Below, in pieces: positions 5,241 through 40,649 of a stretch of DNA of 64,000 nt; position 1 is the stretch's first letter, and each line of letters starts with the position of its first letter. The notes beneath the pieces are model-generated. The model was given only the letters and a program-made list of their open reading frames with translations, did not search any database and was not told the origin of the DNA. The translations under genes and the position numbers were made by a program. The stretch is from a virus: positions 1 through 64,000 of the IMG/VR virus record IMGVR_UViG_3300043449_001175; one strand, written 5' to 3'.

Positions 5241-5263
5241 TATTTATTTAATACAACAAATTG

Positions 5264-15633: not shown

Positions 15634-15635
15634 AA

Positions 15636-16688: not shown

Positions 16689-16699
16689 ATACTTATTAC

Positions 16700-16975
16700 T
16701 TAAAATTTTTCAATTAATTTATTTACCAACATTGTGTTCCACGCAATTTTAAAAGGTATTGTAAGTTGTGATGAAACTTTATTAGCCAGTTTTTCATCAA
16801 TGTCTTCATTTTCACTTAAAATTACTTCTGTTAATGTTTTAATCATTTCATATTTAACAATAGAAATGTGTTGTTCAGGTTCTGTAGACGCTGATACTGG
16901 TGTAGATTGAATATTAACATATTTGTCAATATTATCTAAATTTATGTAGTAGTTTTCACCAAAAAGTGTTATCAT
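16700..16975 (-). CDS. hypothetical protein
   Basis: 91-aa ORF within the operon. Confidence 0.7.
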   Translation of the reverse strand: MITLFGENYYINLDNIDKYVNIQSTPVSASTEPEQHISIVKYEMIKTLTEVILSENEDIDEKLANKVSSQLTIPFKIAWNTMLVNKLIEKF

Positions 16976-18314: not shown

Positions 18315-18351
18315 TAATTATAATTTATGAAAATTAATGATAAAAGAAACA

Positions 18352-20201: not shown

Positions 20202-20893
20202 GAATCTAAATAATTTTTGTTATTAACATGATTTATTTCTTTCCAAATGTCTTTATTGTATAATGAACTAATTTGATGTTGGTGTACCCTGTTAGTCACT
20301 AAACAATTAGAAAGTATTGTAGGTAAACCATATCTAACATACAGTTGATGGTACATGTCACAATCCATTAACATTGTTAAGTTTTCGTCAAAAAGACAAG
20401 GATTATAATTTCTAAATGATAATACAGACGGGGAACTAATTGTATTTACACCTTCTTTAATTCTGTCGTTCCAACGTGGTGTCATTTGGTTTGAGTGAGT
20501 TAAACCATCATCATGGGTATGATTACATCCACACACCAACCACATACACTCATTGTTTTCAAATTCCTTTGAAATTAATTCTAGTGCCCTTTTGTCATAC
20601 AAATAATCGTCTTGAAATATAATTTTGATAATATCTCCATCAGCATTTATAATTGAGTTGTTAGTGTTCGCGGGACCATTACCTAATAAGTTTTTATTTT
20701 TAAAATATTTTATTTCAAATTTAGTAGAATATTCGTCACATAATAATTTAATTTTGTCATCTTTACTGTGGTCGGATATTATGACATTAAAATTTTTATA
20801 TGTTTGAAATAATAAAACCTCAAAGTTATTTTTCAAAAATTCAACTCCTTTACCATATTGTTCCCATGTAGGTATACAAATTGATATTTTCAT
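20192..20893 (-). CDS. glycosyltransferase GT2
   Basis: ISICIPT, SDHSKD, FQDD, SPSV; ends in TAG. Confidence 0.88.
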   Translation of the reverse strand: MKISICIPTWEQYGKGVEFLKNNFEVLLFQTYKNFNVIISDHSKDDKIKLLCDEYSTKFEIKYFKNKNLLGNGPANTNNSIINADGDIIKIIFQDDYLYDKRALELISKEFENNECMWLVCGCNHTHDDGLTHSNQMTPRWNDRIKEGVNTISSPSVLSFRNYNPCLFDENLTMLMDCDMYHQLYVRYGLPTILSNCLVTNRVHQHQISSLYNKDIWKEINHVNNKNYLDSWK

Positions 20894-20894
20894 T

Positions 20895-21542
20895 TTATTT
20901 TTTCTTTAATAGAAAAATACTATTGGAATCAAAATCAGTAAAGTCTTTTAATAAATCATATGTTAAAGTCCCAATAATATCGTATTCTTCCGTATTTAAT
21001 TTTGAGACAATTTCATTTACTGCACCATGTACTTCGGGGCTATATTGAAAATCTAAATAATCGTCAAATGCTATGTATCCACCACTTTTAACCAAACCAA
21101 TATAATTATAAAAATCGTTTAACACTCCATTTGTAGTGTGGTCTCCATCAATAAATAAAAAATCAACTTCATTAATTTCACTTTTAATTTGGTTAACTAT
21201 ATTAATATCTTGGGAATTACCTTGAAAATATTTAAAGGTACTTAATTCATTTTTAAAATTTGCAACATTTCTTTGTACCACTTCAGGATTAATGGGTTCT
21301 CCTAAATCCAAAGTAAAACAATTTGTTGGGTATATATGTGATGCAATTAATGAAATTGAGCCGCCAGCAAATGAACCAATTTCTAAATATGTTATTGGTT
21401 TATCACCAAATTCAGTTCTAATATCATATAAAATATGTGTGTGTTTATGGAATGTGGTGCCTTCCATGGTTTCAGAAATTTTATTAAGTTTTATTAATGA
21501 TTCTTCTGTTATTTTAAATGTATAATTGTTATTTTTGTTCAT
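20895..21542 (-). CDS. class I SAM-dependent methyltransferase (Methyltransf_24-like)
   Basis: LEIGSFAGGS, FIDGDH, GGYIAFDDY. Confidence 0.88.
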   Translation of the reverse strand: MNKNNNYTFKITEESLIKLNKISETMEGTTFHKHTHILYDIRTEFGDKPITYLEIGSFAGGSISLIASHIYPTNCFTLDLGEPINPEVVQRNVANFKNELSTFKYFQGNSQDINIVNQIKSEINEVDFLFIDGDHTTNGVLNDFYNYIGLVKSGGYIAFDDYLDFQYSPEVHGAVNEIVSKLNTEEYDIIGTLTYDLLKDFTDFDSNSIFLLKKK

Positions 21543-22233
21543 ATCCTTCTTCTAAATGTTTACATGTTATTTTATTAATTAAACAACCCGGTCTGTTGAT
21601 ACTTCTTAAATAATCAGACATTCTTTTCCATAAATCAGCATCACCCGGTAAACCAACGTTACCTTCTTCTTCATAAACATTTCTATGTCTTAAAGGAATC
21701 TCCTTAAAATTTATACATACCGATGAATGAATTAAACCTTCTGGTCTTGGGTAAAAGTCACAAATTTCATCAGTAGAATTTACCTCAGGTAAAACTCTAC
21801 CACCAACATAATGTGATTTTGTACATAACCATAGTGCTCCCGTTCTCTCAATTCCCATTTTAAGACTTGATAGATGATTTGGCTCCCATTCATCATCGTG
21901 GTCTAAATGACAAACATAATCATATCCCATCTCCACGGATTTATTTATTCCATAGTTATTTGCGGCGCAACCACCATATTTCCATACTAACCATTTATCC
22001 GTGTATTTGTCTCTTTCTGCAGCTACGGGTAAGTTTTCATAGTACATTCTTTCATTGTCATATGATGAACATATTTCCACAAATTCATCATTATTTTCAT
22101 ACCTGTCACCAATAACAAACACTTTAAAATTTTGATAATCTTGTGCAAAAATAGAATTTAATGCTTTTCTTAAATAAGATGGTGTTGAACCATCATTTCT
22201 TTGGTAGGTGGTAATTACTATACTAAAATTCAT
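21529..22233 (-). CDS. glycosyltransferase GT2
   Basis: SIVITTY, LDHDDEWEPNHL, HSSV, DADLW. Confidence 0.88.
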   Translation of the reverse strand: MNFSIVITTYQRNDGSTPSYLRKALNSIFAQDYQNFKVFVIGDRYENNDEFVEICSSYDNERMYYENLPVAAERDKYTDKWLVWKYGGCAANNYGINKSVEMGYDYVCHLDHDDEWEPNHLSSLKMGIERTGALWLCTKSHYVGGRVLPEVNSTDEICDFYPRPEGLIHSSVCINFKEIPLRHRNVYEEEGNVGLPGDADLWKRMSDYLRSINRPGCLINKITCKHLEEGYEQK

Positions 22234-22961
22234 GATTTAGTTAATGGTTTGTAAATGTATGGATTAGGAAACCCTCTTTCGATAAAATTAGTTTCTAACA
22301 TATTAGTGAATCGGTAATGACAAGACCATCTAATGGTGTCGTTTGTTATATCACCTGACGAGTGTATCAAGAGTGTTGAAAAAATAACAATATCACCCAC
22401 TTCCATTTCAAATTGTATTGGTTCTCCCTCTATTTTTACGGAGGCAAAACCACCAACCGTGTTATAGGGTTGTGGACCTAATTTGTGAGTCTCAGGCCAT
22501 ATTAAAATTGACCCATTTTCTTTATTTACATCAACTAAAGGAACCCACACAACTAATGAGTCCATACTTGATAACATAGATGACCAATCTTGATGTGGGG
22601 GTGTTTTATAATAAACTTCTTCTTTTGCCAATTTAGGGTGATTAAAAAACAATACAGGTCGAGTACAAAGATTTGGTAATTCAATACCCAAATTTTTTAT
22701 TGTATCAATTAATTTTTCTTCAACAGGAAGTTTGTAAAGTTCAATTAATCCTGTTTGAATTATTTTACCACAGTTAATAAAAATTGATTCGTGTTCATTG
22801 AATAATTTTATCATGTTGTCTTTAAATTCACCATCATAACCAAATCTATCAAATTGTATTTGAAAAATTCTTTCGGCCCCTTTTCTTAAATTATCAATAT
22901 AATCTTTTTCAAAGAAGTTTTTAAGAATTACGTATCCTTTTTCTTTAAGTTGTTGTTGCAT
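22230..22961 (-). CDS. phytanoyl-CoA dioxygenase family 2OG-Fe(II) oxygenase
   Basis: PHQD, WVPLVD...NG, GDIVIF...HSSG. Confidence 0.88.
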   Translation of the reverse strand: MQQQLKEKGYVILKNFFEKDYIDNLRKGAERIFQIQFDRFGYDGEFKDNMIKLFNEHESIFINCGKIIQTGLIELYKLPVEEKLIDTIKNLGIELPNLCTRPVLFFNHPKLAKEEVYYKTPPHQDWSSMLSSMDSLVVWVPLVDVNKENGSILIWPETHKLGPQPYNTVGGFASVKIEGEPIQFEMEVGDIVIFSTLLIHSSGDITNDTIRWSCHYRFTNMLETNFIERGFPNPYIYKPLTKS

Positions 22962-23841
22962 AACCTATCCCCGTTTTACCAAAATTATTTCCATTATAAA
23001 ACATAATCATTTCATCTTTTTTATTAATAATAAATGGATAACATGTCATAATGTTATCCCATTCAGATTCTGTTGTAATATCTAAATCAATCTCATTGTT
23101 TTTAACCCAATCAACACCGTTTAACGATGTTGCGGTTTTAATTCGATATGAATGGTCAATGTTGTCTCTATAATTGATTTTGTCTCTAATAGAGTACCAC
23201 ATTTTATATTTACTTTCATTTACAATAACTCTACATGCAGATATACCACCTTCGTTATTTTCTAAAGGAATTGAGACAATTCCTGTCGGAATCCAATCAA
23301 TACCATTTAACGATGTTGCGTATTTTATATCGTAAGTTGGTTCCATCTTACCATCATGTTCAATCCAGTCCAAACAAGATAGATACCACATTTTCCACAC
23401 ACCATTTTCAATTAATATATTGACAGTGCCAATATAACCAGGTTCATCATGTGAAGTGTGAAAAATAGGTCCTTTAGAATATTTTTTCCATGTTTCTCCA
23501 TTATCTTCACTAATGGCTAAACCTAAGTTGTTGTGGTACGGCACATCTATTCTCAAAGACCAACCTATATAGTACATGTACTTTTTATTTTTGTGTGTTA
23601 CAATGTCCGTTGGCATAACTCCTGCCCAATCAAAAGAACCTTTATTACCTAAATTTAAAATAGGGTTAACCGACTCTTTTATTATTTTAGATGGGTTGGA
23701 TTTATCAACGTCAATATACATTGGGTTACTTTTACCATCAATTCTGGTTGAATAGTAGATTCTATAAAAATCATCATATTCATCAACTACAGGTAATTGA
23801 GCGTAATGTTTGTTAAAGATGTTACCTTTCTTTATCCACAT
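22945..23841 (-). CDS. five-bladed beta-propeller glycosidase-like protein (GH32/GH130-like)
   Basis: Repeated YMYY/KMWY..S.DG.(T/D)W blades, FYNGNNFGKTGIG end; likely start MWIKKG at 23841. Confidence 0.75.
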   Translation of the reverse strand: MWIKKGNIFNKHYAQLPVVDEYDDFYRIYYSTRIDGKSNPMYIDVDKSNPSKIIKESVNPILNLGNKGSFDWAGVMPTDIVTHKNKKYMYYIGWSLRIDVPYHNNLGLAISEDNGETWKKYSKGPIFHTSHDEPGYIGTVNILIENGVWKMWYLSCLDWIEHDGKMEPTYDIKYATSLNGIDWIPTGIVSIPLENNEGGISACRVIVNESKYKMWYSIRDKINYRDNIDHSYRIKTATSLNGVDWVKNNEIDLDITTESEWDNIMTCYPFIINKKDEMIMFYNGNNFGKTGIGYATTT

Positions 23842-23842
23842 A

Positions 23843-24502
23843 TTAGTAAACTTCAATTGATTGTTTATCTTGTTTCTTTGCGGGTGAACCCATATATAAT
23901 CCATCTGCTTCGGTAGATTTTGTTATAACTGCACCCATTGCTATTAATGAACCCTCCCCAATAGTTAACCCATCTCTAATTGTTGAATTTACACCGAACC
24001 AAGCTCTTTCTTTAACATGACAATGACCTGATAACACGACATGTGACGTAAAAAACACGTGGTCTTCAATTTTACTATGATGACCAATATGGTTACCACT
24101 CCACATAACAACATTATCGCCAATTTCGGTAAACGGTTGTAATGTATTATCTTCTAAAATAAAACAATTTTCACCTATTTTGTTTCCACATATTGTTGCC
24201 TTTGAAGAAATATAAGAAATATAGGTATATCCTTTTTTCTTACCTTCTTCGTAAATTCTTTTTCTGTTGTTATTCATTTTGGTGCCAGTTATTGGTGCAA
24301 AAAACAAATATTCACTTGGTGAATATATTTTTTCTAATTTTTCAAAAGGTACTACTGGTAATCCTTTGAATTCCGTAACTGACATATAATCTTCATTTAC
24401 CGTGAATGCAACTATTTCATAGTTACTATCGTTAGTTAAATACCAATGTGTTAATTCTGCCAAATCATTTATACCAAAAACCACTACTTTATTTGTAAAC
24501 AT
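23843..24502 (-). CDS. hexapeptide-repeat sugar acetyltransferase (NeuD/PglD-like)
   Basis: IGENCFI, IGDNV, NHIGHH, G.PAK; likely start MFTNK at 24502. Confidence 0.9.
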   Translation of the reverse strand: MFTNKVVVFGINDLAELTHWYLTNDSNYEIVAFTVNEDYMSVTEFKGLPVVPFEKLEKIYSPSEYLFFAPITGTKMNNNRKRIYEEGKKKGYTYISYISSKATICGNKIGENCFILEDNTLQPFTEIGDNVVMWSGNHIGHHSKIEDHVFFTSHVVLSGHCHVKERAWFGVNSTIRDGLTIGEGSLIAMGAVITKSTEADGLYMGSPAKKQDKQSIEVY

Positions 24503-25100
24503 ATGTTGTGTATTCATATAATCCATACTCATTTCTTATTATAAAATTTCTACTTAAATTATTTTTTAAAAACCAACCCAATTCATCTAATGAAACATGA
24601 AATAAATCTTTACGTTCCCAATCAACATGTTTTGACATTAAATTAAAAGCAATTCCTTTATTACATTTATTCCATAATTTTTTAATGACACTTGTAAAAA
24701 AATCCATCATTTCTTCTTGTGATAAATCTCTTTTTTCTGTAAATGTCCCATTACACACTATATAGTCAAAATTTGGTATATTTTCATTTTTTAAAATATC
24801 TAAACGATAAAAATCATTATTTGGAAATTTTAATTTACAAGTATTATAGAACCCATCATTTATATCTAATCCCGAATATTTTATGTTTTTTATTTTTAAA
24901 AATTCAATACGTTGATTTAACGATGCTGTCCCACATCCAAAATCTAATAATGTAATTGGTGTTTTTTCTTTTATCGATTGAATCATAACATCATATCTTT
25001 TATATGTGTCTTCCAATTTTGGCCAATCAACACCTAAATGGGTGTCACCGTGTTCTTTAAAACATTTATCATAATGTTCCGCTAATTTTAAATAACTCAT
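24489..25100 (-). CDS. class I SAM-dependent methyltransferase
   Basis: LLDFGCG, YSGLDI, FDYIVCNG, GIAFN. Confidence 0.88.
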   Translation of the reverse strand: MSYLKLAEHYDKCFKEHGDTHLGVDWPKLEDTYKRYDVMIQSIKEKTPITLLDFGCGTASLNQRIEFLKIKNIKYSGLDINDGFYNTCKLKFPNNDFYRLDILKNENIPNFDYIVCNGTFTEKRDLSQEEMMDFFTSVIKKLWNKCNKGIAFNLMSKHVDWERKDLFHVSLDELGWFLKNNLSRNFIIRNEYGLYEYTTYVYK

Positions 25101-25765
25101 ATTAATTTATAATTTACAATTTGTTTTTGAATGTGTGATTTGTCATACCTAAATAACAAATCCAATATTGATGAATTTTTGTTATCAAAATCAACATTAC
25201 CCATTTTTATAAAATTTAACTCAATGTTATCATTTTTAAAATCTTCTTTATTATACAAAGATTGACCACCTATTGCATTTATATATACATTTGAACCAAA
25301 TTGTTTTGTTATTGATTTTAATCCTTCTTCTTTTTTTAAAGTTGTTAATCCATTTGAAGTGTTTATTATTTTGGTTTGTATATCTAAATAATTACATATT
25401 CTTTTTATTAAATTTAAATTAAATTCAGATATTGTTACTTCTCTATTAATGAATTCTGGTAATATTATATCATTCAAAATAATATTATAATTTGATTCTT
25501 TTGAATATAAATTTTTTAATGTTTTTAAAAAATTAAAAATGTAATTATTTTCAAAATTTACATATATTTCATTACATTTTTTATTTTGACTAGCTCCCCA
25601 AACATTTACATTTATTGGTGTATTATTTTTCAATATATTTCTCGTCATATAACTTCTTTTCATAAATGATACATGGTCTAAATTTACATACGTATTGACA
25701 CAATGTATAAGTTGAAAATACCCAATATATGGAAAAAAATATGGTTGCATTATCCCAATTTTCAT
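25097..25765 (-). CDS. wbqC: WbqC-family protein
   Basis: IMQPYFFPYIGYFQLI, YINAIGG..LY, SILDLLF. Confidence 0.9.
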   Translation of the reverse strand: MKIGIMQPYFFPYIGYFQLIHCVNTYVNLDHVSFMKRSYMTRNILKNNTPINVNVWGASQNKKCNEIYVNFENNYIFNFLKTLKNLYSKESNYNIILNDIILPEFINREVTISEFNLNLIKRICNYLDIQTKIINTSNGLTTLKKEEGLKSITKQFGSNVYINAIGGQSLYNKEDFKNDNIELNFIKMGNVDFDNKNSSILDLLFRYDKSHIQKQIVNYKLI

Positions 25766-25794
25766 ATAAAATTAGTTTCTGTTTTTGAATTTAA

Positions 25795-26436
25795 TTATTG
25801 TTGGTAGACTTTAAATTTTGATAAATCCGGATAACGTAATTCTAAATCTTCATTATGTTTTGGTGTGTTGGTTGCGGTATCGTAAAATTGTGAAATTAAC
25901 AACAAACCTCTCGACGCTAATTCTGGCATCATATAAAAATTCCAACCAATAACCGGATTAATGTCAAAATCATCATTGTGATAACTACATTCATCCCTAC
26001 CACTAAATCTTGCTTTTTTAAACCATTTATATGCATCTTCATTGTCGGTCAATATTGCACCACCTTTACTTAATTTTAAATGTTTGTATGGTCCTGTGAA
26101 TGAAACACACATGTGAGTACCAGGAATATACATATTTGAGGTAAACCTAAGTGCACTATCCCAAACATTAGTTGGGTATAATTGGTATGCGCCTTTAATT
26201 GTGTCACCATCAACGGGTTTAAATTTAACTTTAGCACCTGCGTGAATTATTTCACACGGAACCGATGGATATGTTCTTGAAGGAATTTCAATTTCCATAC
26301 CAGAAACTTTTTCATATGTTAATGCTAAAAATAAAGCATTACTTTGATTATCAACGGTAACAACATATTTTGCTCCCGTATACTCAGACAATTTTTTTTC
26401 AAAATCTTCAGTTATTTTATGTACTCCTTGTGCCAT
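25795..26436 (-). CDS. DegT/DnrJ/EryC1/StrS PLP aminotransferase, short form
   Basis: FEKKLSEYTG, ALFLAL, PSRTY, WDSA, SFTGPYK...GGAILTD, GWNFYM. Confidence 0.85.
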   Translation of the reverse strand: MAQGVHKITEDFEKKLSEYTGAKYVVTVDNQSNALFLALTYEKVSGMEIEIPSRTYPSVPCEIIHAGAKVKFKPVDGDTIKGAYQLYPTNVWDSALRFTSNMYIPGTHMCVSFTGPYKHLKLSKGGAILTDNEDAYKWFKKARFSGRDECSYHNDDFDINPVIGWNFYMMPELASRGLLLISQFYDTATNTPKHNEDLELRYPDLSKFKVYQQ

Positions 26437-26459
26437 TATTTGTAATATATATTTTTTTT

Positions 26460-27986
26460 TTAAAAATCATCTGTATTAAAAAATAAATGTTTTAATTTAT
26501 TAAAATTATTCATAACAAAAGGACCTAAAAAATTTTGATAGTCAAAAATTGTTTTTTTATTTTTTTCTTCAGAGTCATTTCTGGTTTGTGATTCATAATG
26601 GTAGGCCACAGATTTACCGGATAAAAAGTTTTCGTATCCCAACAATATACACCTTAAATTAAGCTCAACATCCTCAAAACACTCTGTATAGTTTTCATTA
26701 TAACCATTTTGTTTTTCAAATAAACCCTTTTTAATCATTAATAACGCTGCCGTGCTACCAATTACATTTTTTGTGTAAGGAGTGTATGAATAATACGAAT
26801 GAAGTGCCGCATGAGTAACACCAAATTGTTTATCTTTGTTTAGGTAACACAAAATACCATTATGTTGAATAGTATTATTTTCATAATGCAGTCTAGCTCC
26901 TACAGTACCAACTTTATTTTTACTCTTATAAATTGATAACATTTCAAAAACAACATTATTTAAAACTTTAATATCGTTATTAGAAAATAATAAAAATTCA
27001 AAGTCCTCAGTAACATAATTTTTTACAACATCATTATTAATTTTTGCAAAATTATAGTAGTCATACTCAATTAAATGAATTTTACATGTAGTTTCATGAT
27101 TTTTAATAAACTCAAGTGTTAATTGTTTTTCTTCGTCAGTTGACCCAGTATCGGCAATAAACACTTCAAATAAATCAGTGTTGCAATGTTCAATATATGA
27201 GTTAATACAATTAAACAATAAATCTAATTTACCTTTTGTTGGTATAATAATGGCGACTTTGCCAGTATTTTTAAGAGGCTTTTCAATTATCTTTTCAAAA
27301 TAAACACTCTCAGGTTTTAAATCTAATGGTAAGTGTTCACCATATTTTTGTAAAAAAACTTCTTTAGATAAATAAAATTCATCATTTGGTTTACCAATTG
27401 ATTTATGAGTTATTTCAAATGAAAAAGTAACACCAAGTTTAACACCATCTAAATAATTTGCTAAACAAAATGGGTGGTCGTAAAAATGGTATTTACCAAT
27501 AGTTTCATCAAACGTATGTTTTATTTTTGTTTTATTAAACGCCATTATCAAACCATCTATAGTTACCACAGGTATTAAAAATGGTACTTTAGCTGAGTAT
27601 TTATTAATCCACTTATTTTGACCATCAGGGTGATGATAAACGTGACCAACCATTGTAAGAGGAGCTCTCTCCCAATAAACACCTGATTCAGGAAAATAAC
27701 AAGAACCGGCTTTACCAATAATTCCATAATCAGGATTATTTTCAAAGTCTTTTATTAATTTTTTACCCCAACCTTGTTCTAATTTTACATCATTATGTAC
27801 ACATACCACAATATCATATATTGATTCACCAATACCTCGGTTATAGATTTGTGCCAATGAAAACTCATTATTATTTTGGTATTCTAAAATTTGTGTATTT
27901 TTTAAACCAACAGTTGTTTCTAAATGTTTTTTAAATACAGAGTTGTATTTGGCATCTTTGTGTGTGGAATATATAATGGTAATCAT
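26460..27986 (-). CDS. two-domain glycosyltransferase (GT-A + GT2)
   Basis: VHNDV and IDG..FYD in N-half; IIIPTK, ADTGS, NNDI, EDVELNLR, HYESQTR in C-half. Confidence 0.88.
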   Translation of the reverse strand: MITIIYSTHKDAKYNSVFKKHLETTVGLKNTQILEYQNNNEFSLAQIYNRGIGESIYDIVVCVHNDVKLEQGWGKKLIKDFENNPDYGIIGKAGSCYFPESGVYWERAPLTMVGHVYHHPDGQNKWINKYSAKVPFLIPVVTIDGLIMAFNKTKIKHTFDETIGKYHFYDHPFCLANYLDGVKLGVTFSFEITHKSIGKPNDEFYLSKEVFLQKYGEHLPLDLKPESVYFEKIIEKPLKNTGKVAIIIPTKGKLDLLFNCINSYIEHCNTDLFEVFIADTGSTDEEKQLTLEFIKNHETTCKIHLIEYDYYNFAKINNDVVKNYVTEDFEFLLFSNNDIKVLNNVVFEMLSIYKSKNKVGTVGARLHYENNTIQHNGILCYLNKDKQFGVTHAALHSYYSYTPYTKNVIGSTAALLMIKKGLFEKQNGYNENYTECFEDVELNLRCILLGYENFLSGKSVAYHYESQTRNDSEEKNKKTIFDYQNFLGPFVMNNFNKLKHLFFNTDDF

Positions 27987-27992
27987 TCTATT

Positions 27993-28592
27993 TTACTTTA
28001 TTCCAGTACTACCGAATCCATTATCCCCCCTATCTTTACCTAAAATTTCAGAAACTTCAATAGGGTTTATCCATCTACCATTTGCTACAGGACAAACACA
28101 AGCTTGAGCAATTTTTTGTCCCTTTTCTACGTAAACGGTATCATGAGTTGAATTATATAGAATAACTTTAACTTCACCATCATATCCTGAGTCAACGGTT
28201 CCAGGTGTGTTTAAAACGGTTAATCCTTGTTTTAATGCTAAACCACTTTTTGGTCTAACTTGAATTTCATAACCGTCTTTAATATTAAACTTTAACCCTG
28301 TTCCAACCAACATTCTTGACAGTGGTGGAATACCAATACTTTCTGTTGAGTGTAAATCGAACCCTGAGTCTGTGGGGTAATTATATTTTGGTGATACTGC
28401 ATCGGGATGACATTTTACAAATTTTAAATCCATCTTTGGGTTTTTTTCAGAAAATGTTTTTTCTAATTCTTTAAGATTAACACCACTAATTTCTTCAACA
28501 CCAATTTCATTGTTCATTTCACCTTGTAGTTGTTTTAATATGTTACTTAGCTCTTCTTGTAACAAGTCCATTTCATCGTTTTCGTTATTCAT
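27993..28592 (-). CDS. dut: dUTPase (trimeric)
   Basis: SGFDL, RPKSGLA, NTPGTVDSGYDGE, KIAQ, RGDNGFGSTG. Confidence 0.96.
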   Translation of the reverse strand: MNNENDEMDLLQEELSNILKQLQGEMNNEIGVEEISGVNLKELEKTFSEKNPKMDLKFVKCHPDAVSPKYNYPTDSGFDLHSTESIGIPPLSRMLVGTGLKFNIKDGYEIQVRPKSGLALKQGLTVLNTPGTVDSGYDGEVKVILYNSTHDTVYVEKGQKIAQACVCPVANGRWINPIEVSEILGKDRGDNGFGSTGIK

Positions 28593-28593
28593 A

Positions 28594-29295
28594 TTATTGT
28601 AATTCTTTTAATTTTTTAATTATGTCAATTAATACCATCACATCTCTTTCACAATATTCTACAATTAAATCAAGTTGATTAAAATCATAATAAGCCTCAT
28701 GTACTCGGTTACCAGTAACCTCACCTTCTTTTGGTGATTTAACACCCATTGCGGCACACATAAGTTCCAATGATGATAATGCAAAGTTGTTTCCCATTTT
28801 CCAAACATCCATGGTATCAATTGCCTTTATTTCCCAAGGCTTGGTATCATAAGATGGGAGTAATGGTGATGGTTTAATACCATTGATAACCATACGTTTA
28901 TTTAATACAGGAATATCAAAGTTTTTAATGTTATGTCCACACAACCAAAAATCTAATTTAAAAACTTTATTAAGAAGTGCGTTAATACCCAATAAGATTT
29001 CTTTCTCATCATCACCTGAAAAAGTTTGTGCGTGTGTTTTTCCATCAGGGCCAACAAAAGCAAAACTTGCACATACTATTTTTGAAAACTCAGGAACAAG
29101 TGCCGCTCGGTTTACAAACACTTGTTGTGGGTCCAATCCTTGGTCTTCAGGAAATCTTTTCTGAAACCAATCAAAATAGTTGTGAAATTGTTTTGTAAGT
29201 GCTGGATGGTTTTGTTCAAGACCATCATAGTCTTTATACAAACCAACAGTTTCAATGTCAAAAAATAATAATTTAGTTAATGGTACCTGTATCAT
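28594..29295 (-). CDS. PolB-related 3'-5' exonuclease (DEDDy)
   Basis: FDIETV, GHNIKNFDIP, KPWE, YCERDV. Confidence 0.88.
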   Translation of the reverse strand: MIQVPLTKLLFFDIETVGLYKDYDGLEQNHPALTKQFHNYFDWFQKRFPEDQGLDPQQVFVNRAALVPEFSKIVCASFAFVGPDGKTHAQTFSGDDEKEILLGINALLNKVFKLDFWLCGHNIKNFDIPVLNKRMVINGIKPSPLLPSYDTKPWEIKAIDTMDVWKMGNNFALSSLELMCAAMGVKSPKEGEVTGNRVHEAYYDFNQLDLIVEYCERDVMVLIDIIKKLKELQ

Positions 29296-30503
29296 ACAAT
29301 AGATTTATAAAATTCTGCTCTTGTTTTAGTAACAACATTTAGGTCGTAAGTATCTTTAACGGTTTCATACAACCTTTCACCCAAGTCATAAGCCCAATTT
29401 GGGTTATCAATGAGTTTCTTTGCGTATTTAAACCAATCACTATGATTTCTACTTTCATCAACCAACAATGCGTTTCCATCAACAAAGTTACCATTTTGTA
29501 ATGAATGTTTCAAGTCAATCGTATATGGACCCACGTTGGAAGCAATCAATGCTTTCTTGTAAAAACCAGCTTCAATAACTTTTAATTGTGATTTAACTCG
29601 GTTAAAGATGTGGTTTTTAATTGGTGCCAAAGATACATCAAATTTTGCGTAGTTTTTAGCGTAGTTTTGAACGGGTCTTGTCCACACACGGTGATAATAT
29701 TCATCAGAAAATTTAGAATAATCTTCTTCTTTAAATTTTAATAAGAAATCTTTATAATCAGGACTTATTAATTTTGCGTTATCCGTAAAAATATTTTCGT
29801 ATTTATACCAAACAGTTTCTTCAGGTTTAATATCTCTTTTAGTTTGTTCTTTTGTTTCAGCATTAATTTCTGTAACAGTTCCTCTAATATCAAAACCACA
29901 TAAATAAACTTGTACTTTTTCTTTGTATGGTTCCATTCTTTGGAATAATCCATCTAACAACATTAAATCATGTAAGTGTGATGAACCACCTAACCAACCA
30001 AATCTTAATTTATCAGATTTAATTGTTGGTTCACAAAACTGAGCTTCTTTTGGATTAATTGCGTTTGGAAATACAAAAACGTTTTTATTGTATTTTCTAA
30101 TTTCATCGGCAAATAATGTTGTAGTTGTTAACACATAGTCAGCAACTTTAATATTATCAACAATTTTTTCGTGAATTTTGTTAACACGAATTAAATCGTG
30201 AATTGGGTGTTCTTTAGTTGGTAGCCAATAATCATCCAAATCCATTACGGTTTTAATACCTTTTGATTTTAAATAATTAACTATGTTTGCGGTGTTTTCG
30301 TAATTACCCGCAATTACTCTATGAAAATGTACAATTTGATAATCATCCCATACCGATGGGTCATTGATATTTAAATCAAAAACAATATCAACGTGAAAAT
30401 CATCAGGATATAAATTTTGTAAAAAAATGTGAGGGTCTACTGAACGGAACTTACCAACACCTGTTCTGTCGGATGGTAATACTAATACTTTTATCTTTGA
30501 CAT
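29292..30503 (-). CDS. glycosyltransferase, GT-B fold
   Basis: DLDDYW, PNAI, GWLGGSSH..DL, DVSLAP...FN..KS.LK.IEAG. Confidence 0.85.
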   Translation of the reverse strand: MSKIKVLVLPSDRTGVGKFRSVDPHIFLQNLYPDDFHVDIVFDLNINDPSVWDDYQIVHFHRVIAGNYENTANIVNYLKSKGIKTVMDLDDYWLPTKEHPIHDLIRVNKIHEKIVDNIKVADYVLTTTTLFADEIRKYNKNVFVFPNAINPKEAQFCEPTIKSDKLRFGWLGGSSHLHDLMLLDGLFQRMEPYKEKVQVYLCGFDIRGTVTEINAETKEQTKRDIKPEETVWYKYENIFTDNAKLISPDYKDFLLKFKEEDYSKFSDEYYHRVWTRPVQNYAKNYAKFDVSLAPIKNHIFNRVKSQLKVIEAGFYKKALIASNVGPYTIDLKHSLQNGNFVDGNALLVDESRNHSDWFKYAKKLIDNPNWAYDLGERLYETVKDTYDLNVVTKTRAEFYKSIV

Positions 30504-33178: not shown

Positions 33179-36007
33179 ATGGCTTATCAGAACATTAACC
33201 AATATGTCTATAAAAAATGGTTTTTATCACCATTTTTAGAAGTTACGGACCTTTCTTTGGCTTCAGATGAACGAGATTATAACGAAGAAGTTATTTTTTC
33301 GCCATATATTATTGGAGCATATGATGGTGATGTATTGCCAGTTAAATTTGATATAAATTTTACAGGAAGTAATCAAAATTTTTCATTAACATACGGAAAT
33401 TATGATTTTGATAACATTTTAGTATCCGAAAATTACTACAACCCAACTGATGTTTTAATAGATTGTTATTCTTCAAAAACAATTTGTGATATTGGATTAA
33501 CAGGTACTGATAACGGATTGGTTACTGGAATGACAGGTCAATCAATAACTTATACAAATGGTTTGTTACCAACAAATGAAAAATTTGATAGATATAAATT
33601 TGATAGGAGATTAAAATTACACCAAGTTACTGGTTACACGTGGACTCCAAACACAAGATTTTCAGGTGTAACGGCAGGAACAGTTTATGATGTGGTATCT
33701 TACAGCGCTCAAACTGTTGGAAATTACCAAGAATTGTATGGTGGTTTTTATCAAGGGTTTTATGAGTTATTTGGTTACGATTATAAAATTTTACCTGAAA
33801 GATATCCAAAAGGGTGGACGGTAGAAATGACTTTAAAGCCGAGATTGTCCAATGCTTATACTCCAAGTTCAGGACAAACAACATTAAATCAATATTACCC
33901 AAATAATGCTGGTATTTTCTTTTATATGGGTACAAGGGCTGAAAATAAATATTGGCACCACGCAGCAGGAACAAATTCAGGCGACCCATCATACTATAGA
34001 ATCACAACACCACTAACAGGTTTAACAAGTTGTTTTTGTGTTGATTTATATCCTAATTATACAACATCGTCAACTACGGTATTTGATTTAACAACAAGCG
34101 GTGAAACATTAACAGTATCTTCAGATTTATCATGGGTTTCAGGTGATACCGCATTAATATATCACGATGATGCACAATATCTTATTGGTACTGTTGTTGG
34201 TTACACATCTGAAACAGGGAATTTTCAATTTGTAACAACAAAACGAGTTGGTTTAGGAACTATATATTTTTCAATTGTAACTAATCCGGGTTATTTAGAA
34301 TATAACGATTCTAATTGTGTGTTAGTATATCCGCCAACAGGAACAACAGATTCACATACTCAAGTAGACCCTTGTTGTTGTCCTGAACCACCAGTTCCAA
34401 TTCCAGAACATAATCCTGAATATGATTCAATGTCAAACGCAATTGCAATTAAATTCAGTGGTGACCCACATAATCCAAAAATTTGTGTAAGAACTTTAAC
34501 AATAACAGGTGATTGTATTTTTTCGGGTTCTTGTGAAACATTGGGTCCTGATTCTGTTACTGGATATTCAATTAACAATTACTGTTCAGAAAGAGGAATT
34601 TACGATAATTGTAGTGGAACTACATACGATGACCAAGAACACTGGGTTTTGGTTGATGTCGTCTTTGAACGATACACGTGGTTAGATACCTGCGATTTAT
34701 ATTATCGTGGAGGTCTTGGAACAATTACAACATTTCCATATACCGCAAGTACGGCTAATAATTCGGTTTCATTAATATCGCCACCAATCACACATTACGA
34801 ATTAATCCCAACAATCGAGGAACTTGTTGAATTAAATAATCTTTGGATATTAGAAAAAATATATCGTAGAGGTAGAATAAAGGTTTATATCAACGGTAGA
34901 ATATTTGATGTATTTGAAGATGTTGAAGAAATTATACCACGTGGTTTATTTGGTCATAAAGAAAATCAAGTCGGAGTACCATTCAATATATCTTGGGGTG
35001 GTGGTACACAAGGACTACACGAAAATTTAATTTTTAGTGCGGTACCAACCAATGATATAAATTACTATACTCAAGACCCTGAATTGTTTCCACCAAACAT
35101 TTTAAGTGGTACAACATTAAGTGGACTCACAACTAATATATTAATTGAACAAAATTTTGCCGGAACTTTTGATGGTGCGATATCAAAGTTTAATATGTAT
35201 GCAAAACCATTATCGGTTCCTGAAATTCAACACAATGCAAGAATTTTAAGACCAATTTATAATTTTTTAAATCCATATTGTTTAGATTGTGGTGCAAATG
35301 TAACACCAACCCCAACACCAACAACAACAGTTACACCAACACCAACCTCAGTTACTCCAACTCCAACACCTACACCATCGGTAACACCAGGTCTTTCACC
35401 AACACCAACCCCAACACCGACAAGTACACCATCACCTTATTTTGCATATCTATTTATAGAACCTCAATCAGGTTCAACTCTTATTGGTGAATACATGTAC
35501 AATTTGGGTTCAACATTCTATGGATTTACAAATAACTCAGCGCCAGACAATGACAACACAAATCCTGACTTATTCAATGATGACATGAATAATTATGTGT
35601 CTTTCTCAGGATGGAGTAATGGTTCATTCCCTTCAGTGAGAACTCAAACAGTTCCACAGTCTTCGGGTGGTGTTGATTCATTTGGTAATTCAATATCGGC
35701 ATATAATTTCACAACACACGAAGTACCAATTAATACAGTTAGTGGTAACTCTTGGTATACGTGGATTATCCCAAATGATGCGATAAATGATGGAATACAA
35801 CAAAAAATTGCTTATAGTGTAAATGGTAATCCAAACGCATTGACAACATCAATTATGGACAGCTCAATTTATTCTAGTACGTTTACTTATACAGGTACTA
35901 CAATTCCTGTTGGTACTTATAGAGTTTACACAACATTTGCTGACTTGTCATTCTATATAAATAACAACTTTAATACCGTATATTTTAAAGGTGATACTGT
36001 AATTTAA
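33179..36007 (+). CDS. large virion protein with LamG/ConA-like region and Thr-Pro linker
   Basis: GWTVEM, KVYINGR, FAGTFDGAISKFNMYAKPLS.PEI; TPTP linker; many [ST]GxT motifs. Confidence 0.7.
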   Translation: MAYQNINQYVYKKWFLSPFLEVTDLSLASDERDYNEEVIFSPYIIGAYDGDVLPVKFDINFTGSNQNFSLTYGNYDFDNILVSENYYNPTDVLIDCYSSKTICDIGLTGTDNGLVTGMTGQSITYTNGLLPTNEKFDRYKFDRRLKLHQVTGYTWTPNTRFSGVTAGTVYDVVSYSAQTVGNYQELYGGFYQGFYELFGYDYKILPERYPKGWTVEMTLKPRLSNAYTPSSGQTTLNQYYPNNAGIFFYMGTRAENKYWHHAAGTNSGDPSYYRITTPLTGLTSCFCVDLYPNYTTSSTTVFDLTTSGETLTVSSDLSWVSGDTALIYHDDAQYLIGTVVGYTSETGNFQFVTTKRVGLGTIYFSIVTNPGYLEYNDSNCVLVYPPTGTTDSHTQVDPCCCPEPPVPIPEHNPEYDSMSNAIAIKFSGDPHNPKICVRTLTITGDCIFSGSCETLGPDSVTGYSINNYCSERGIYDNCSGTTYDDQEHWVLVDVVFERYTWLDTCDLYYRGGLGTITTFPYTASTANNSVSLISPPITHYELIPTIEELVELNNLWILEKIYRRGRIKVYINGRIFDVFEDVEEIIPRGLFGHKENQVGVPFNISWGGGTQGLHENLIFSAVPTNDINYYTQDPELFPPNILSGTTLSGLTTNILIEQNFAGTFDGAISKFNMYAKPLSVPEIQHNARILRPIYNFLNPYCLDCGANVTPTPTPTTTVTPTPTSVTPTPTPTPSVTPGLSPTPTPTPTSTPSPYFAYLFIEPQSGSTLIGEYMYNLGSTFYGFTNNSAPDNDNTNPDLFNDDMNNYVSFSGWSNGSFPSVRTQTVPQSSGGVDSFGNSISAYNFTTHEVPINTVSGNSWYTWIIPNDAINDGIQQKIAYSVNGNPNALTTSIMDSSIYSSTFTYTGTTIPVGTYRVYTTFADLSFYINNNFNTVYFKGDTVI
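35300..35436 (+). repeat. Thr-Pro coding repeat
   Basis: [46 protein letters not shown]. Confidence 0.9.
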
Positions 36008-36114
36008 AATTTATCCTTTACCTCATCACAAGTATTATAAAAAAAGGTTTTTAACAATTAATTTTCCTATTAACTTTTCTATTTCTTTAATTAGTTTTAT
36101 GAAAAACTATTTTA

Positions 36115-37362
36115 ATGAAAATATTTGTTCAAATTGCCTCTTATCGTGACCCACAGTTGGTTCACACAATCAAAAACATGATTGAAAATGCGAAGAAACC
36201 AAAAAATTTACGATTTGGTATTGCAAGACAATTTCATCCCAATGATAAATTTGATGACTTGTCAGAGTACGATAAAGATAAAAGATTCAAAATCATTAAC
36301 ATTCCATACGAAGAATCAAAAGGTGTTTGTTGGGCAAGAAACCTAACACAACAACTTTATGATAATGAAGAATATACACTTCAAATTGATTCTCACATGA
36401 GGTTTGCTCCAAATTGGGATGATGAGATGATTAAGATGATTAAACAACTCCAAAAGAAAGGTCATGAAAAACCATTACTTACAGGTTATGTTTCGTCATT
36501 TGACCCCGACAATGACCCTCAAGGGAGAATGCAAGAGCCATGGAGAATGGCGTTTGACAGATTTATTCCCGAAGGTGCGGTATTCTTCTTACCTGAAACA
36601 ATTCCAGGTTGGCAGAACTTAACAGAACCTGTCACATCTCGTTTCTATTCGGCTCACTACTGTTTCACTTTGGGACAATTCTCAAAAGAAGTACAACACA
36701 ACCCTGAATACTATTTTCACGGTGAAGAAATATCAATTGCCGCTCGTGCTTATACTTGGGGTTATGATTTGTTCCACCCACATAAAGTTTTGATTTGGCA
36801 CGAATATACTCGTAAAGGTAGAACAAAACAATGGGATGACGATAAAGCTTGGGGTGAGAAAAACAAACATTCACATTTTACAAACAGAAAGTTGTTTGGT
36901 ATGGACGGTGAACAACAAGAAGGACATGATGGTCCTTATGGTTTTGGTCCCGTTAGAACATTAAGAGATTACGAAAAGTACTCTGGTTTGTTGTTTGAAA
37001 AACGTGCGGTACAACAATATACTTTGGATAAGAACTACCCACCGAACCCATATAATTTTGAATCTGAAGAAGAGTGGAAGAAAAACTTTGCTCAAGTTTT
37101 CAAACATTGTATTGATATTGGATTCTCTCAAGTACCTGAAAAAGATTATGATTTTTGGGTGGTTGCTTTTCACGGAGAAAATGATGAAACACTTTATAGA
37201 AAAGATGCTGACATCAATGAGATTAATAGAATGTTAAATGACCCTGATGGATATTGTAAAGTATGGAGAGAGTTCCAAACAGAACATAAACCAAAGTATT
37301 GGGTTGTTTGGCCTCACTCAGTATCAAAAGACTGGTGTGAAAGGATTACGGGGAACCTGTAA
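36115..37362 (+). CDS. GT60-like polypeptide/hydroxyproline GlcNAc transferase
   Basis: IFVQIASYRDP, SKGVCWAR, LQIDSHMRF..WD, FHGEE...AR.YT.G.D signatures of the Skp1 GlcNAc-transferase family. Confidence 0.85.
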   Translation: MKIFVQIASYRDPQLVHTIKNMIENAKKPKNLRFGIARQFHPNDKFDDLSEYDKDKRFKIINIPYEESKGVCWARNLTQQLYDNEEYTLQIDSHMRFAPNWDDEMIKMIKQLQKKGHEKPLLTGYVSSFDPDNDPQGRMQEPWRMAFDRFIPEGAVFFLPETIPGWQNLTEPVTSRFYSAHYCFTLGQFSKEVQHNPEYYFHGEEISIAARAYTWGYDLFHPHKVLIWHEYTRKGRTKQWDDDKAWGEKNKHSHFTNRKLFGMDGEQQEGHDGPYGFGPVRTLRDYEKYSGLLFEKRAVQQYTLDKNYPPNPYNFESEEEWKKNFAQVFKHCIDIGFSQVPEKDYDFWVVAFHGENDETLYRKDADINEINRMLNDPDGYCKVWREFQTEHKPKYWVVWPHSVSKDWCERITGNL

Positions 37363-37377
37363 TAATAAAATTAGTTA

Positions 37378-38112
37378 ATGAATATTACTAATATCCCTAA
37401 GTTTGTCGTTAATTTAGAAAGACGACCTGACCGATTAGAACATATCCAAAAAGAAATGGATTATATGGGTTGGGAATACGAGTTATTCAAAGCCGTTGAT
37501 TTAAATAATCATGGTGGTTGTACTTTATCACACACACAAATCATTAAACTTGCCAAAGAACGAGGATATGACTCGGTTATGGTGATTGAAGATGATTGTA
37601 CTTTTTTACCGTATTCGAAGGATTTGATAAATAAAATTGAAACCGAATCTGATGAGTTTGAATTTGGAATTATTAATCTTGCACCAACCTTAAACCGAGT
37701 AGTCAACCGTAGTGAAGAACAACCTTTATTTTTAGATATTACAAATTTACCGCCAAAGAAAGAACATGAAAGAGGTATATTTGCAACTAACATGATAATT
37801 TATCATAGTTCAATTTATGATAAAGTTTTGGAAATGGAAAAAAAAGAAAACTTAGGTTATTATGCAATAGATGATTACATTTATCAATTTGTTTTACCAA
37901 TCAGACAAAGTTATTGTCCAATATTACCAGTTGCCCCTCAAATGAGTAGTTGGTCTGATGTATCTCAAGGACAATACAATAATTTTTATACTCAAACTTA
38001 TAATTGGAATTTATATAGTCCGTGTAAAATACCTTCAGGATATTTACATGGTACATTAACAAACGAACTTAAAACAAATAAACAACATAAAGAATTTACA
38101 TATGTCAGTTAA
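37378..38112 (+). CDS. glycosyltransferase GT25-like
   Basis: VVNLERRPDR, AVD, GCTLSH, VIEDD. Confidence 0.85.
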   Translation: MNITNIPKFVVNLERRPDRLEHIQKEMDYMGWEYELFKAVDLNNHGGCTLSHTQIIKLAKERGYDSVMVIEDDCTFLPYSKDLINKIETESDEFEFGIINLAPTLNRVVNRSEEQPLFLDITNLPPKKEHERGIFATNMIIYHSSIYDKVLEMEKKENLGYYAIDDYIYQFVLPIRQSYCPILPVAPQMSSWSDVSQGQYNNFYTQTYNWNLYSPCKIPSGYLHGTLTNELKTNKQHKEFTYVS

Positions 38113-38983
38113 ATTTATTACATCAATATATAGCGATTTGTATGGTACTGAATACGGTGGTCGAATTGGTAGAGGAGGTCATTATCGATATAGTTTATTA
38201 TCGCTTTTAAAAATGACTAATGCTGATTTTTTATGTTATACATCAGATAGAGAGTTACCTTCATTACTCACATTTTTTTATGAAACACATGGTATATCAT
38301 CAGATAAACTAAAATTTCAAGTGTTTGATATTGCAAATACAAAATTCAAAGATTTAATTAATCAATATAAAGATGTTGAAGTAACTAAAAAATCAGATAG
38401 ATGTATTGAAGTACAATATAGTAAATTCCATTGGTGGTGGAACGAAGATAAGTCTTATGATTATTATTATTGGATTGACGCTGGATTGTCACATTGCGGA
38501 TTAATCCCAGTTAAATACTTGGTTGGTACTCACCCCGAACAAAGATATTATGAATCAACTTTATTCAATAATGATTTTTTGAAGAATCTAATTGAAGATA
38601 CTGGCGATAAATTCTTAATTCTTGGAAAAGAAAATGACCGAAATTATTGGTCAGGCACATTGGACCCTAAATGGTATACTAATTGGGAAAGAGGTGTTCA
38701 TATTATTGGAGGACTATTTGGTGGTCATAGAGATAATTGGGATAAAATTGTTACACTATTTGAAGATTATACTAAAAATGTTATTACTGAGGATAAAGGT
38801 TTACCCCATGAAGAAAATATAATGACATTAATGTACTATAATCATAAAGAATTATTTGAACGTAAACATTTTGATATTTGGTGGTGTAGGGATAATGCAC
38901 CTGCAGGTGTTTCAGATGAAATGTTTGAACAAAATAAAAGTTTTTTTAAAATTTTAGAAGAATTTAATAGAATATATGAGTAA
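38102..38983 (+). CDS. HtrL/WlaTC-like protein (putative glycosyltransferase)
   Basis: YYYWIDAGL, IGGLFGG, EENIM; paralogous to N-half of next gene. Confidence 0.6.
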   Translation: MSVKFITSIYSDLYGTEYGGRIGRGGHYRYSLLSLLKMTNADFLCYTSDRELPSLLTFFYETHGISSDKLKFQVFDIANTKFKDLINQYKDVEVTKKSDRCIEVQYSKFHWWWNEDKSYDYYYWIDAGLSHCGLIPVKYLVGTHPEQRYYESTLFNNDFLKNLIEDTGDKFLILGKENDRNYWSGTLDPKWYTNWERGVHIIGGLFGGHRDNWDKIVTLFEDYTKNVITEDKGLPHEENIMTLMYYNHKELFERKHFDIWWCRDNAPAGVSDEMFEQNKSFFKILEEFNRIYE

Positions 38984-40649
38984 TATAACTTTAGTAACAG
39001 GTCTTTGGAATATTAAGAGAGATGAACTTGGTGAAGGTTGGTCTCGTTCATTCCAACATTATTTGGATAAATTTGAACAACTACTTAAGGTTGAAAATCC
39101 AATGATTATATTTGGTGATTCTGACTTGGAATCATTTGTTTTTGAAAGACGAAACAAAGATAATACAATGTTTATCTCTCGTAGTCAAGAATGGTTCAAA
39201 AACGAATTTTATGACAAAATACAAACAATCAGAACAAATCCTGATTGGTATAATCAAGCAGGTTGGTTACCACAATCAACACAAGCAAGATTAGAAATGT
39301 ACAATCCTTTGGTAATGTCAAAGGTTTTCTTATTAAATGATGCCAAAATTATGGACCCATTTAATTCTGATATGATGTTTTGGATTGATGCTGGTTTAAC
39401 AAATACTGTTCATCCAGGTTATTTTACACACGATAAAGTTTTGGAGAAATTACCTAACTATGTTAATAAATTTTCATTTGTTTGTTTCCCATATCAAGCC
39501 GAAAACGAGATTCACGGATTTAACTTTAATCAAATTAATGGAATTGTTGGTGAAAAGGTAGAAATGGTTGCACGTGGTGGGTTCTTTGGTGGTCCAAAAC
39601 ACACAATAGGAGACATTAACGGGATTTATTACAATTTGTTATCATCCACATTATCTCGTGGACTTATGGGAACTGAGGAGTCAATATTCTCAATCATGTG
39701 TTACAAACACTCCGATTTAATTGATTACTTTGAAATAGAATCTAATGGTTTATTTGGTAAGTTCTTTGAAGATTTGAAAAATGAAACATTAGAAAGAAAA
39801 AACAAACAAGGTTTTACACCAATTAATGACGATTTGAATCCTGATAACGCTGCTTTGTATGTAATTACATTTAATAGTCCAAAACAATTTGAAACATTGA
39901 TTGATTCAATGACTCAATATGACAAAGATTTTTTAGATAAACCAAAAAAGTTTTTATTGAATAACTCATCTGATTTATCAACTACCGAAAGATACTCGGA
40001 ACTTTGTGAAATATATGGTTTTGAACATATCAAGAAAGATAATTTAGGTATTTGTGGTGGTAGACAATGGGTTGCAGAACATTCTGAAGAAAATGGGTTT
40101 GATTTTCATTTTTTCTTCGAGGATGACATGTTCTTTTACCCCCAAAAAGGAGATGTGTGTAGAAACGGATTTAATAGATACGTTTCAAATTTATATAAGA
40201 ACACATTAGAAATAACAAAAAAGAATCATTTTGATTTTTTAAAGTTTAATTACAGTGAGTTTTATGGTGATAATGGTACCCAATGGTCGTGGTACAATGT
40301 TCCACAGAACTTTAGAATAGAACATTGGCCTGAAAAACCAAATTTACCTGTTCACGGTCAAGACCCAAATGCTCCAAGAACAAAATTCAAACATGTAAGA
40401 ACACACAATGGTATTCCATTCGTATCAGGTGAAATTTATTATTGTAACTGGCCACAAGTTGTTACTCGTCATGGTAACAAGAAAATGTTTTTAGAAACAA
40501 CTTGGGCACACCCGTTCGAGCAGACATGGATGAGTTTTATTTTTCAAGAAACAATTAAGGGAAAAATCAATCCCGGACTATTACTTATGACCCCAACTGA
40601 ACATGATAGGTTTGAATTTTATGATGGTTCATTAAGAAAAGAATCTTAA
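38976..40649 (+). CDS. HtrL/YibB-like domain fused to a GT-A-like domain
   Basis: TLVTGLWNI.R, YNPLVMSK, FWIDAGL, RGGFFGG; C-half FFEDDM. Confidence 0.7.
   Translation: MSNITLVTGLWNIKRDELGEGWSRSFQHYLDKFEQLLKVENPMIIFGDSDLESFVFERRNKDNTMFISRSQEWFKNEFYDKIQTIRTNPDWYNQAGWLPQSTQARLEMYNPLVMSKVFLLNDAKIMDPFNSDMMFWIDAGLTNTVHPGYFTHDKVLEKLPNYVNKFSFVCFPYQAENEIHGFNFNQINGIVGEKVEMVARGGFFGGPKHTIGDINGIYYNLLSSTLSRGLMGTEESIFSIMCYKHSDLIDYFEIESNGLFGKFFEDLKNETLERKNKQGFTPINDDLNPDNAALYVITFNSPKQFETLIDSMTQYDKDFLDKPKKFLLNNSSDLSTTERYSELCEIYGFEHIKKDNLGICGGRQWVAEHSEENGFDFHFFFEDDMFFYPQKGDVCRNGFNRYVSNLYKNTLEITKKNHFDFLKFNYSEFYGDNGTQWSWYNVPQNFRIEHWPEKPNLPVHGQDPNAPRTKFKHVRTHNGIPFVSGEIYYCNWPQVVTRHGNKKMFLETTWAHPFEQTWMSFIFQETIKGKINPGLLLMTPTEHDRFEFYDGSLRKES

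Follow-up and report, generated by a model that had tools for sequence, protein, structure and literature searches.

A GT60-family glycosyltransferase beside Thr-Pro-stalked proteins in an uncultured freshwater jumbo phage: a proposed initiator of virion protein O-glycosylation

The characterised members of glycosyltransferase family GT60 are the mucin initiators of Trypanosoma cruzi and the Gnt1 enzymes of Dictyostelium and Toxoplasma, which act on a hydroxyproline of Skp1. The family occurs in prokaryotes and protists only, and the DxH motif that it carries in place of DxD is specific to GT60 and its sister family GT27 (PMC7185993). Among viruses of bacteria, virus-encoded glycosylation of the virion has been described in mycobacteriophages (Freeman et al., 2023, as cited in PMC12582341). 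Here we report on a GT60 gene at 36115-37362 in a window of 64,000 bases, which comprises positions 1-64,000 of the 99,138-base IMG/VR record IMGVR_UViG_3300043449_001175. The source is part of an uncultured freshwater myovirus; the CheckV completeness estimate for this record was 34%, which implies a jumbo phage of ~290 kb. We propose, with a probability of roughly one half, that the enzyme starts glycans in the cytoplasm on the Thr-Pro stalks of the phage's own virion proteins; the locus has the appearance of a unit that combines substrate and machinery for the cytoplasmic glycosylation of such stalks. The enzyme and its two candidate acceptors were as follows.

36115..37362, plus strand: soluble GT-A glycosyltransferase of family GT60 (PF11397), 415 amino acids, recognised by profile, motif and predicted fold; the proposed initiating protein O-glycosyltransferase
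33179..36007, plus strand: modular protein of 942 amino acids, the proposed acceptor and likely a virion fibre protein
5261..6664, plus strand: protein of 467 amino acids directly 3' of the capsid gene, with a repeat region at amino acids 64-362; the second candidate acceptor

The first-pass annotation had recognised GT60 motifs in 36115-37362, and a profile search bore the assignment out. The Pfam profile PF11397 ('GlcNAc') matched with an E value of 1.1e-67 and 229.4 bits, against a gathering cut-off of 21 (190 and 39 bits in the genome-level search), and phrog_24687 ('glycosyltransferase') matched with an E value of 5.5e-164. The DxH motif, D92-S93-H94, was present in 90% or more of 50 homologues, whose identity ranged down to 35%, and E204, E205 and H229 were invariant among them. 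On these sequence matches the product can be classed as a bona fide GT60 member. Its AlphaFold (AF2) model had a predicted local distance difference test score (pLDDT) of 95.4, and the closest structural relatives of the predicted fold are the mucin-initiating polypeptide N-acetylgalactosaminyltransferases (ppGalNAc-transferases): ranks 1-29 in VIA-align all belonged to them (Z 19.1-22.5 over ~270 residues, root-mean-square deviation 3.2-3.9), the top Foldseek matches likewise, and other GT-A families scored Z 18.1 or less. Sequence searches of the PDB with the GT60 protein gave no matches, and literature searches on the family (GT60, PF11397) in phages brought up no relevant paper. The existing annotation of the gene, both in PHROGs and in the cultured phage XacN1 (see below), is that of a generic glycosyltransferase.

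Compared with the protist enzymes, the phage protein shares the Pfam and CAZy family, the DxH metal motif and the GT-A fold that is sister to GT27. We found no membrane or hydrophobic segment in it, and it would thus be soluble like the cytoplasmic Gnt1, while its candidate acceptors are rich in Thr and Pro as the trypanosome mucins are. However, it is encoded by a phage of bacteria, it has an HtrL-like double glycosyltransferase as its partner, which is absent from the protist pathways, and it carries an additional C-terminal domain of ~110 amino acids. This conserved domain (residues ~300-415) is beta-rich in the model; it was seen mainly among phage homologues, and many bacterial ones keep it too. 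The animal GT27 enzymes resemble it as its top structural matches, in the DxH motif and in the order of catalytic and then C-terminal domain. They differ in sequence (10-13% identity only), in CAZy family and in their membrane anchor. The ricin-lectin Pfam profile gave no match to the phage protein, and residues ~300-415 form a smaller beta-rich domain than the ricin-type beta-trefoil.

The 942-amino-acid protein encoded immediately upstream consists of a conserved N-terminal part of ~700 amino acids with a possible LamG-like region, a Thr-Pro linker (amino acids ~707-755, nucleotides ~35297-35443) and a C-terminal tip module of 187 amino acids. The segment singled out by the first-pass annotation starts at 35300 and so falls on this linker. 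That annotation described a Thr-Pro-stalked virion protein; the stalk was found, and the word 'virion' is our likely reading from three indirect points, namely a tip shared with a baseplate/fibre gene, the TATTTAT sequence and the modular architecture. With 66% identity (E 2e-78), this tip resembles that of a 330-amino-acid protein, where a Thr-Pro linker likewise precedes it; the gene, at 96434-97426 of the contig, belongs to the baseplate/fibre module and is downstream of a gp6-like gene. TATTTAT stands 12 nucleotides 5' of the start codon at 33179, as at several structural genes. It was seen 12-14 nucleotides 5' of the starts at 33179, 40666, 41251, 49344, 54457, 56871 and contig position 93314, was not present 5' of the GT60 gene, and may be a late promoter. 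In 19 or more relatives the N-terminal ~700 amino acids were kept, the Thr-Pro linkers differed in length and number, and the C-terminal modules varied; modular exchange of this kind is consistent with an exposed fibre protein. No Pfam or PHROG family matched the 942-amino-acid protein, tblastn against phage records gave no match, and the Atlas search returned phage hypothetical proteins only, together with a weak LamG lead. Its AF2 model, built with 19 homologues, was of low confidence (mean pLDDT 35.9). Prediction of a complex between the GT60 protein and linker residues 703-756 gave a score of 0.00, which is no answer and weighs neither way. The gap at 36007-36115 held no terminator-like site and sigma-70-like sites at chance level, and is uninformative on co-transcription.

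Thr-Pro linkers were present in four proteins of the 99-kb contig, two of them in the baseplate/fibre module. In the product of 5261-6664, TETPTNTPT-type tandem repeats, near-perfect and ~300 amino acids long in all, are flanked by a short N-terminal part and a C-terminal end that is hydrophobic; this protein may be a mucin-like decoration fibre of the capsid. Beyond the window, an open reading frame (ORF) at contig 97450-99138 follows directly after two Thr-Pro fibre genes and runs off the contig end; it encodes a collagen-like repeat (G-T-S / G-E-S) of more than 300 residues.

The association of Thr-Pro proteins with GT60 was then seen across phages, for which the IMG/VR loci compared were 80 close and 78 more distant ones. 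Of 67 GT60 clusters, 32 had a Thr-Pro linker in the ORF immediately upstream, whereas such a linker occurred in 6.3% of the remaining ORFs of these loci. These 32 ORFs fell into 17 groups without similarity outside the linker, indicating that the adjacency is not merely one inherited gene. This adjacency is the strongest contextual signal for the acceptor, and it speaks against the unlikely alternative that GT60 modifies phage proteins elsewhere (capsid, sheath or the globular domains of fibres), acts on hydroxyproline made by PhyH as Gnt1 does on Skp1, or is an extender. What such an alternative has in its favour is that about half of the GT60 clusters are without a Thr-Pro ORF directly upstream, that the characterised members use Thr or hydroxyproline, and that a PhyH 2-oxoglutarate-dependent (2OG) oxygenase is encoded at 22230-22961, in the sugar island of the window. 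However, prolyl 4-hydroxylases belong to a family other than PhyH. By analogy with the Skp1 pathway, a rarer variant of glycosylation on the stalks would have the linker prolines hydroxylated by PhyH first, with GT60 acting on the resulting hydroxyproline.

The order of genes in the phage loci was constant: one or more Thr-Pro proteins, GT60, a variable cassette, the 557-amino-acid HtrL-like gene, a 133-amino-acid gene and PolB. GT60 was the most conserved gene of the neighbourhood, with 75-95% identity across relatives, compared with 63-98% for PolB and 45-95% for the 942-amino-acid upstream protein. Between GT60 and the HtrL-like gene, the cassette spanned 1.6-9.3 kb with 2-13 genes, drawn from 74 protein clusters. 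Its contents included FkbM and other methyltransferases, GT10, GT25, GT2 and PLOD-type glycosyltransferases, DegT, UDP-galactopyranose mutase (GLF), and carbamoyl-, sulfo- and pyruvyl-transferases. Such variation between constant genes is expected where the core is conserved and the glycan diversifies. The genes that follow GT60 in the window were as follows.

37378..38112, plus strand: glycosyltransferase of family GT25, in the variable cassette (PF01755, 51 bits against a cut-off of 24)
38102..38983, plus strand: weakly HtrL-like protein of 293 amino acids, in the variable cassette (by pairwise similarity)
38976..40649, plus strand: two-domain protein of 557 amino acids, the conserved partner of GT60, with HtrL_YibB in its N-terminal half and a second glycosyltransferase-like C-terminal half

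The genes lie at the coordinates and in the order that the first-pass annotation gave, and its cassette logic, with hypervariable glycan-tailoring genes between a conserved GT60 and a conserved HtrL-like gene, held as well. Of the GT25 and HtrL-like enzymes that it placed downstream, 37378-38112 and 38976-40649 were confirmed by their families, while 38102-38983 is weakly HtrL-like, matched no Pfam family and did not reach the gathering score of HtrL_YibB (PF09612). The best stretch of the GT25 match covers amino acids 6-44 only; the protein also had weak sequence matches to Mimivirus R655 and to procollagen galactosyltransferase, and the gene was present in some relatives only, with 27-88% identity. 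The 293-amino-acid protein has a GG(L/F)FGG...EE motif region in common with 38976-40649 (pairwise E 0.004), a further HtrL-type cross-match at 2e-4, and 30% identity to XacN1 ORF332. The 557-amino-acid protein matched PF09612 over amino acids 3-251 with 65.6 bits (cut-off 24.1), and the PDB sequence search with it gave no matches. The HtrL_YibB family has no demonstrated activity.

GT60 relatives numbered more than 7000 at 90% clustering and 4492 clusters at 50% identity, and the Atlas clusters nearest to the phage protein were 80-98% viral. A search for loci with the distant homologue P0166 found nothing. One locus with GT60 and HtrL stood on an IMG/VR contig labelled as a giant-virus metagenome-assembled genome (GVMAG), which would be either mis-binning or the module in a eukaryotic virus.

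The module is also carried by the cultured relatives XacN1 and Xoo-sp13, in which GT60 has 47% identity and the HtrL-like protein 41% (ORF330 in XacN1), with a carbamoyltransferase in between. In XacN1 it adjoins baseplate wedge genes and a 3313-amino-acid protein with an in-frame (TP)5 stretch. Virion proteins of XacN1 were Schiff-positive, and the authors suggested its two glycosyltransferases as the cause (PMC5852040); one of the two is the GT60 orthologue.

In the mechanism that we propose, the soluble GT60 would act in the cytoplasm during particle assembly and transfer the first sugar, probably an N-acetylhexosamine (HexNAc) from a uridine diphosphate (UDP) sugar, by a retaining, metal-dependent GT-A mechanism. 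The acceptors would be hydroxyls within the Thr-Pro linkers of fibre and decoration proteins that the phage itself encodes. The next sugars would come from the conserved HtrL-like double glycosyltransferase, and the strain-variable cassette and the upstream sugar island would extend and decorate the chain. We infer which molecules are acceptor and donor, in what order the enzymes act and that the acceptor proteins belong to the virion. The initiator-plus-extender O-glycosylation that the first-pass annotation envisaged gains from the family of the enzyme, the gene order, the cassette logic, the Thr-Pro genes that recur upstream, the XacN1 virions and the searches for lipid-carrier and DNA-hydroxylation routes given below; for acceptor, donor and the extension of one and the same chain it stands as a proposal.

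Several points weigh against initiation on Thr-Pro stalks. To our knowledge there is no prokaryotic or viral GT60 with a known acceptor, so that family and fold are a lead. The place of the 33179-36007 product in the virion is one that we infer. In the phages, Thr-Pro ORFs made up 14.3% of near and 6.5% of far ORFs under a stricter linker definition (odds ratio 2.4, p = 0.045 at 70% clustering), a modest enrichment with odds ratios of 2.4-2.7, in figures uncorrected for relatedness. The GT60-HtrL pair was also widespread in bacterial contigs and metagenome-assembled genomes (MAGs) (contig GC 0.29-0.71), and 80 such bacterial/MAG loci gave no significant Thr-Pro enrichment (10/340 vs 8/444, p = 0.34). 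One Gemmatimonadaceae chromosome has a gene for a Bac_transf priming enzyme ~4 kb away from the pair, indicating that some cellular members may act on lipid-linked glycans. Finally, the DNA polymerase gene adjoins the module in this lineage, as it does in XacN1 (where RNase H is a neighbour too), and the C-terminal half of 38976-40649 had weak matches to phrog_842 and, below the gathering score, to the TET-associated glycosyltransferase profile TAGT (22.4 vs 27.5 bits, E 1.3e-4).

The bacterial loci bear on another reading that we consider improbable, in which GT60-HtrL and the sugar island make or alter a glycan that is not on protein (host lipid-linked intermediates, lipopolysaccharide (LPS), capsule or free oligosaccharide), for example for a superinfection block or an altered cell surface, and the Thr-Pro proteins are plain fibres with flexible linkers. 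The lack of significant Thr-Pro enrichment and the Bac_transf neighbour in bacteria agree with it, lipooligosaccharide loci are the only known setting of HtrL_YibB proteins, and GT25, GT11, GT10 and WbqC are typical of LPS/O-antigen clusters. However, WbaP- and WecA-type priming enzymes and the Wzx flippase (PF02397, PF00953, PF01943) were not found in the contig and three further genomes, one of them the 98%-complete relative, in searches whose positive controls matched in 9-13 genomes. The glycosyltransferases of the window region are without membrane segments, the GT60 model is closest to the polypeptide-directed GT27, Thr-Pro genes stand directly upstream in 17 unrelated forms, and glycosylated virion proteins are what the staining of XacN1 indicates (PMC5852040).

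Among other bacterial loci, those of Ralstonia, Cupriavidus, Neisseriaceae and Trinickia had a shorter GT60 homologue after a conserved run of genes of ~172, 626, 350, 430 and 350 amino acids. A large protein is encoded nearby in these Burkholderiales-type loci, with a Thr-Pro-rich tract in Trinickia and Ralstonia. In a Congregibacter MAG, two PF11397 paralogues (411 and 417 amino acids) lie at most 2.5 kb apart and adjoin an HtrL-like gene and a small Thr-Pro ORF.

The position next to PolB and the weak TAGT and phrog_842 matches, together with the diversity that phage DNA glycans can have, would be expected if the module glycosylated phage DNA bases, like the glucosyltransferases of the T-even phages and the TET-associated glycosyltransferases, and the phage systems for DNA bases (T-even, TET-associated and arabinosyl-5-hydroxycytosine, 5hoC) do resemble this locus in having soluble glycosyltransferases near replication genes. 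We give this very little credence. The enzymes that make hydroxylated bases were not found here: a homologue of ThyA (PF00303), the family of the hydroxymethylase and 5hoC synthase, and a C5 DNA methyltransferase (PF00145) were absent from the contig and the 98%-complete relative in searches with working positive controls, and TET/JBP (PF12851) gave no match in either, in a search without a positive control. Furthermore, GT60 is not among the known families of DNA glycosyltransferases, and XacN1 DNA was cut by BssHII, NaeI and SpeI (PMC5852040).

The other genes of the contig that are referred to above, with the sugar island, were as follows.

14827..30503, minus strand: large sugar island, from Pfam scans
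3113-4954: gp23-type capsid protein (PF07068 match)
41748-44483: PolB
51255-54449: tail sheath, 1064 amino acids
contig 93314-96052, beyond the window: 912-amino-acid protein of the fibre module with a Thr-Pro linker, six SprB repeats and a weak Hoc-like Ig match

The sugar island probably supplies and extends the glycan. Its glycosyltransferase genes comprise five GT2-type ORFs (one with two GT2-type domains), a GT11 and two GT4-like genes, and its further sugar genes encode a UDP-sugar dehydrogenase, a DegT fragment, WbqC, a hexapeptide acyltransferase, methyltransferases and the PhyH oxygenase. No membrane segments were found in the island products, the top 19-residue hydropathy being 1.74. 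The DegT fragment, at 25795-26436 (213 amino acids), matched only positions 26-98 of the 360-position profile and may be a truncated or split aminotransferase. Non-sugar genes within the island were PhoH (17562-18314), a dUTPase/dCTP-deaminase-like gene (27993-28592) and a PolB-exo-like exonuclease (28594-29295).

The window has a GC content of ~31%, and PhoH and a gp6-like baseplate wedge are also encoded on the contig; megablast of the region against phage records gave no match. The genome-bin homologues nearest to the phage were on MAG contigs of Saprospiraceae and other Bacteroidota with similar GC, and a Bacteroidota host is likely for this reason. SprB repeats are typical of Bacteroidota gliding adhesins, and those of the 912-amino-acid protein are a hint at the host phylum. 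At 45940-47484, a 514-amino-acid ORF has an Fe/Mn superoxide dismutase domain (amino acids ~40-228) fused to ~280 residues without a family match.

With respect to the described virus-encoded glycosylation of virions, in mycobacteriophages, chloroviruses and Mimivirus, the locus is similar in having viral glycosyltransferase genes beside structural genes, in a cytoplasmic setting and in dispensing with a lipid carrier. It is different in that no role has been assigned to GT60 in those systems and in its hypervariable tailoring cassette and mucin-like Thr-Pro candidate acceptors. As a system, it is a variant of virus-encoded virion glycosylation and not a new kind. More tentatively than for initiation on the stalks as such, we suggest that jumbo phages of Bacteroidota hosts, abundant in freshwater, may coat their capsids and tail fibres in a mucin-like manner, with O-glycans started by GT60 on Thr-Pro stalks and made strain-specific by the cassette. 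In that case bacterial viruses would have their first system of mucin-type O-glycosylation, and GT60 outside the protists its first function.

If glycan initiation on the Thr-Pro stalks is correct, widespread environmental phages would make mucin-like glycoproteins in the bacterial cytoplasm with a family characterised so far only in protists, and could provide a soluble, lipid-independent toolkit for protein O-glycosylation. It would also give a function to prokaryotic and viral GT60, a large family, and a reason for the many Thr-Pro stalks on phage fibres, while the variable glycan locus would be a new layer of virion surface diversity, with consequences for adsorption, stability and recognition.

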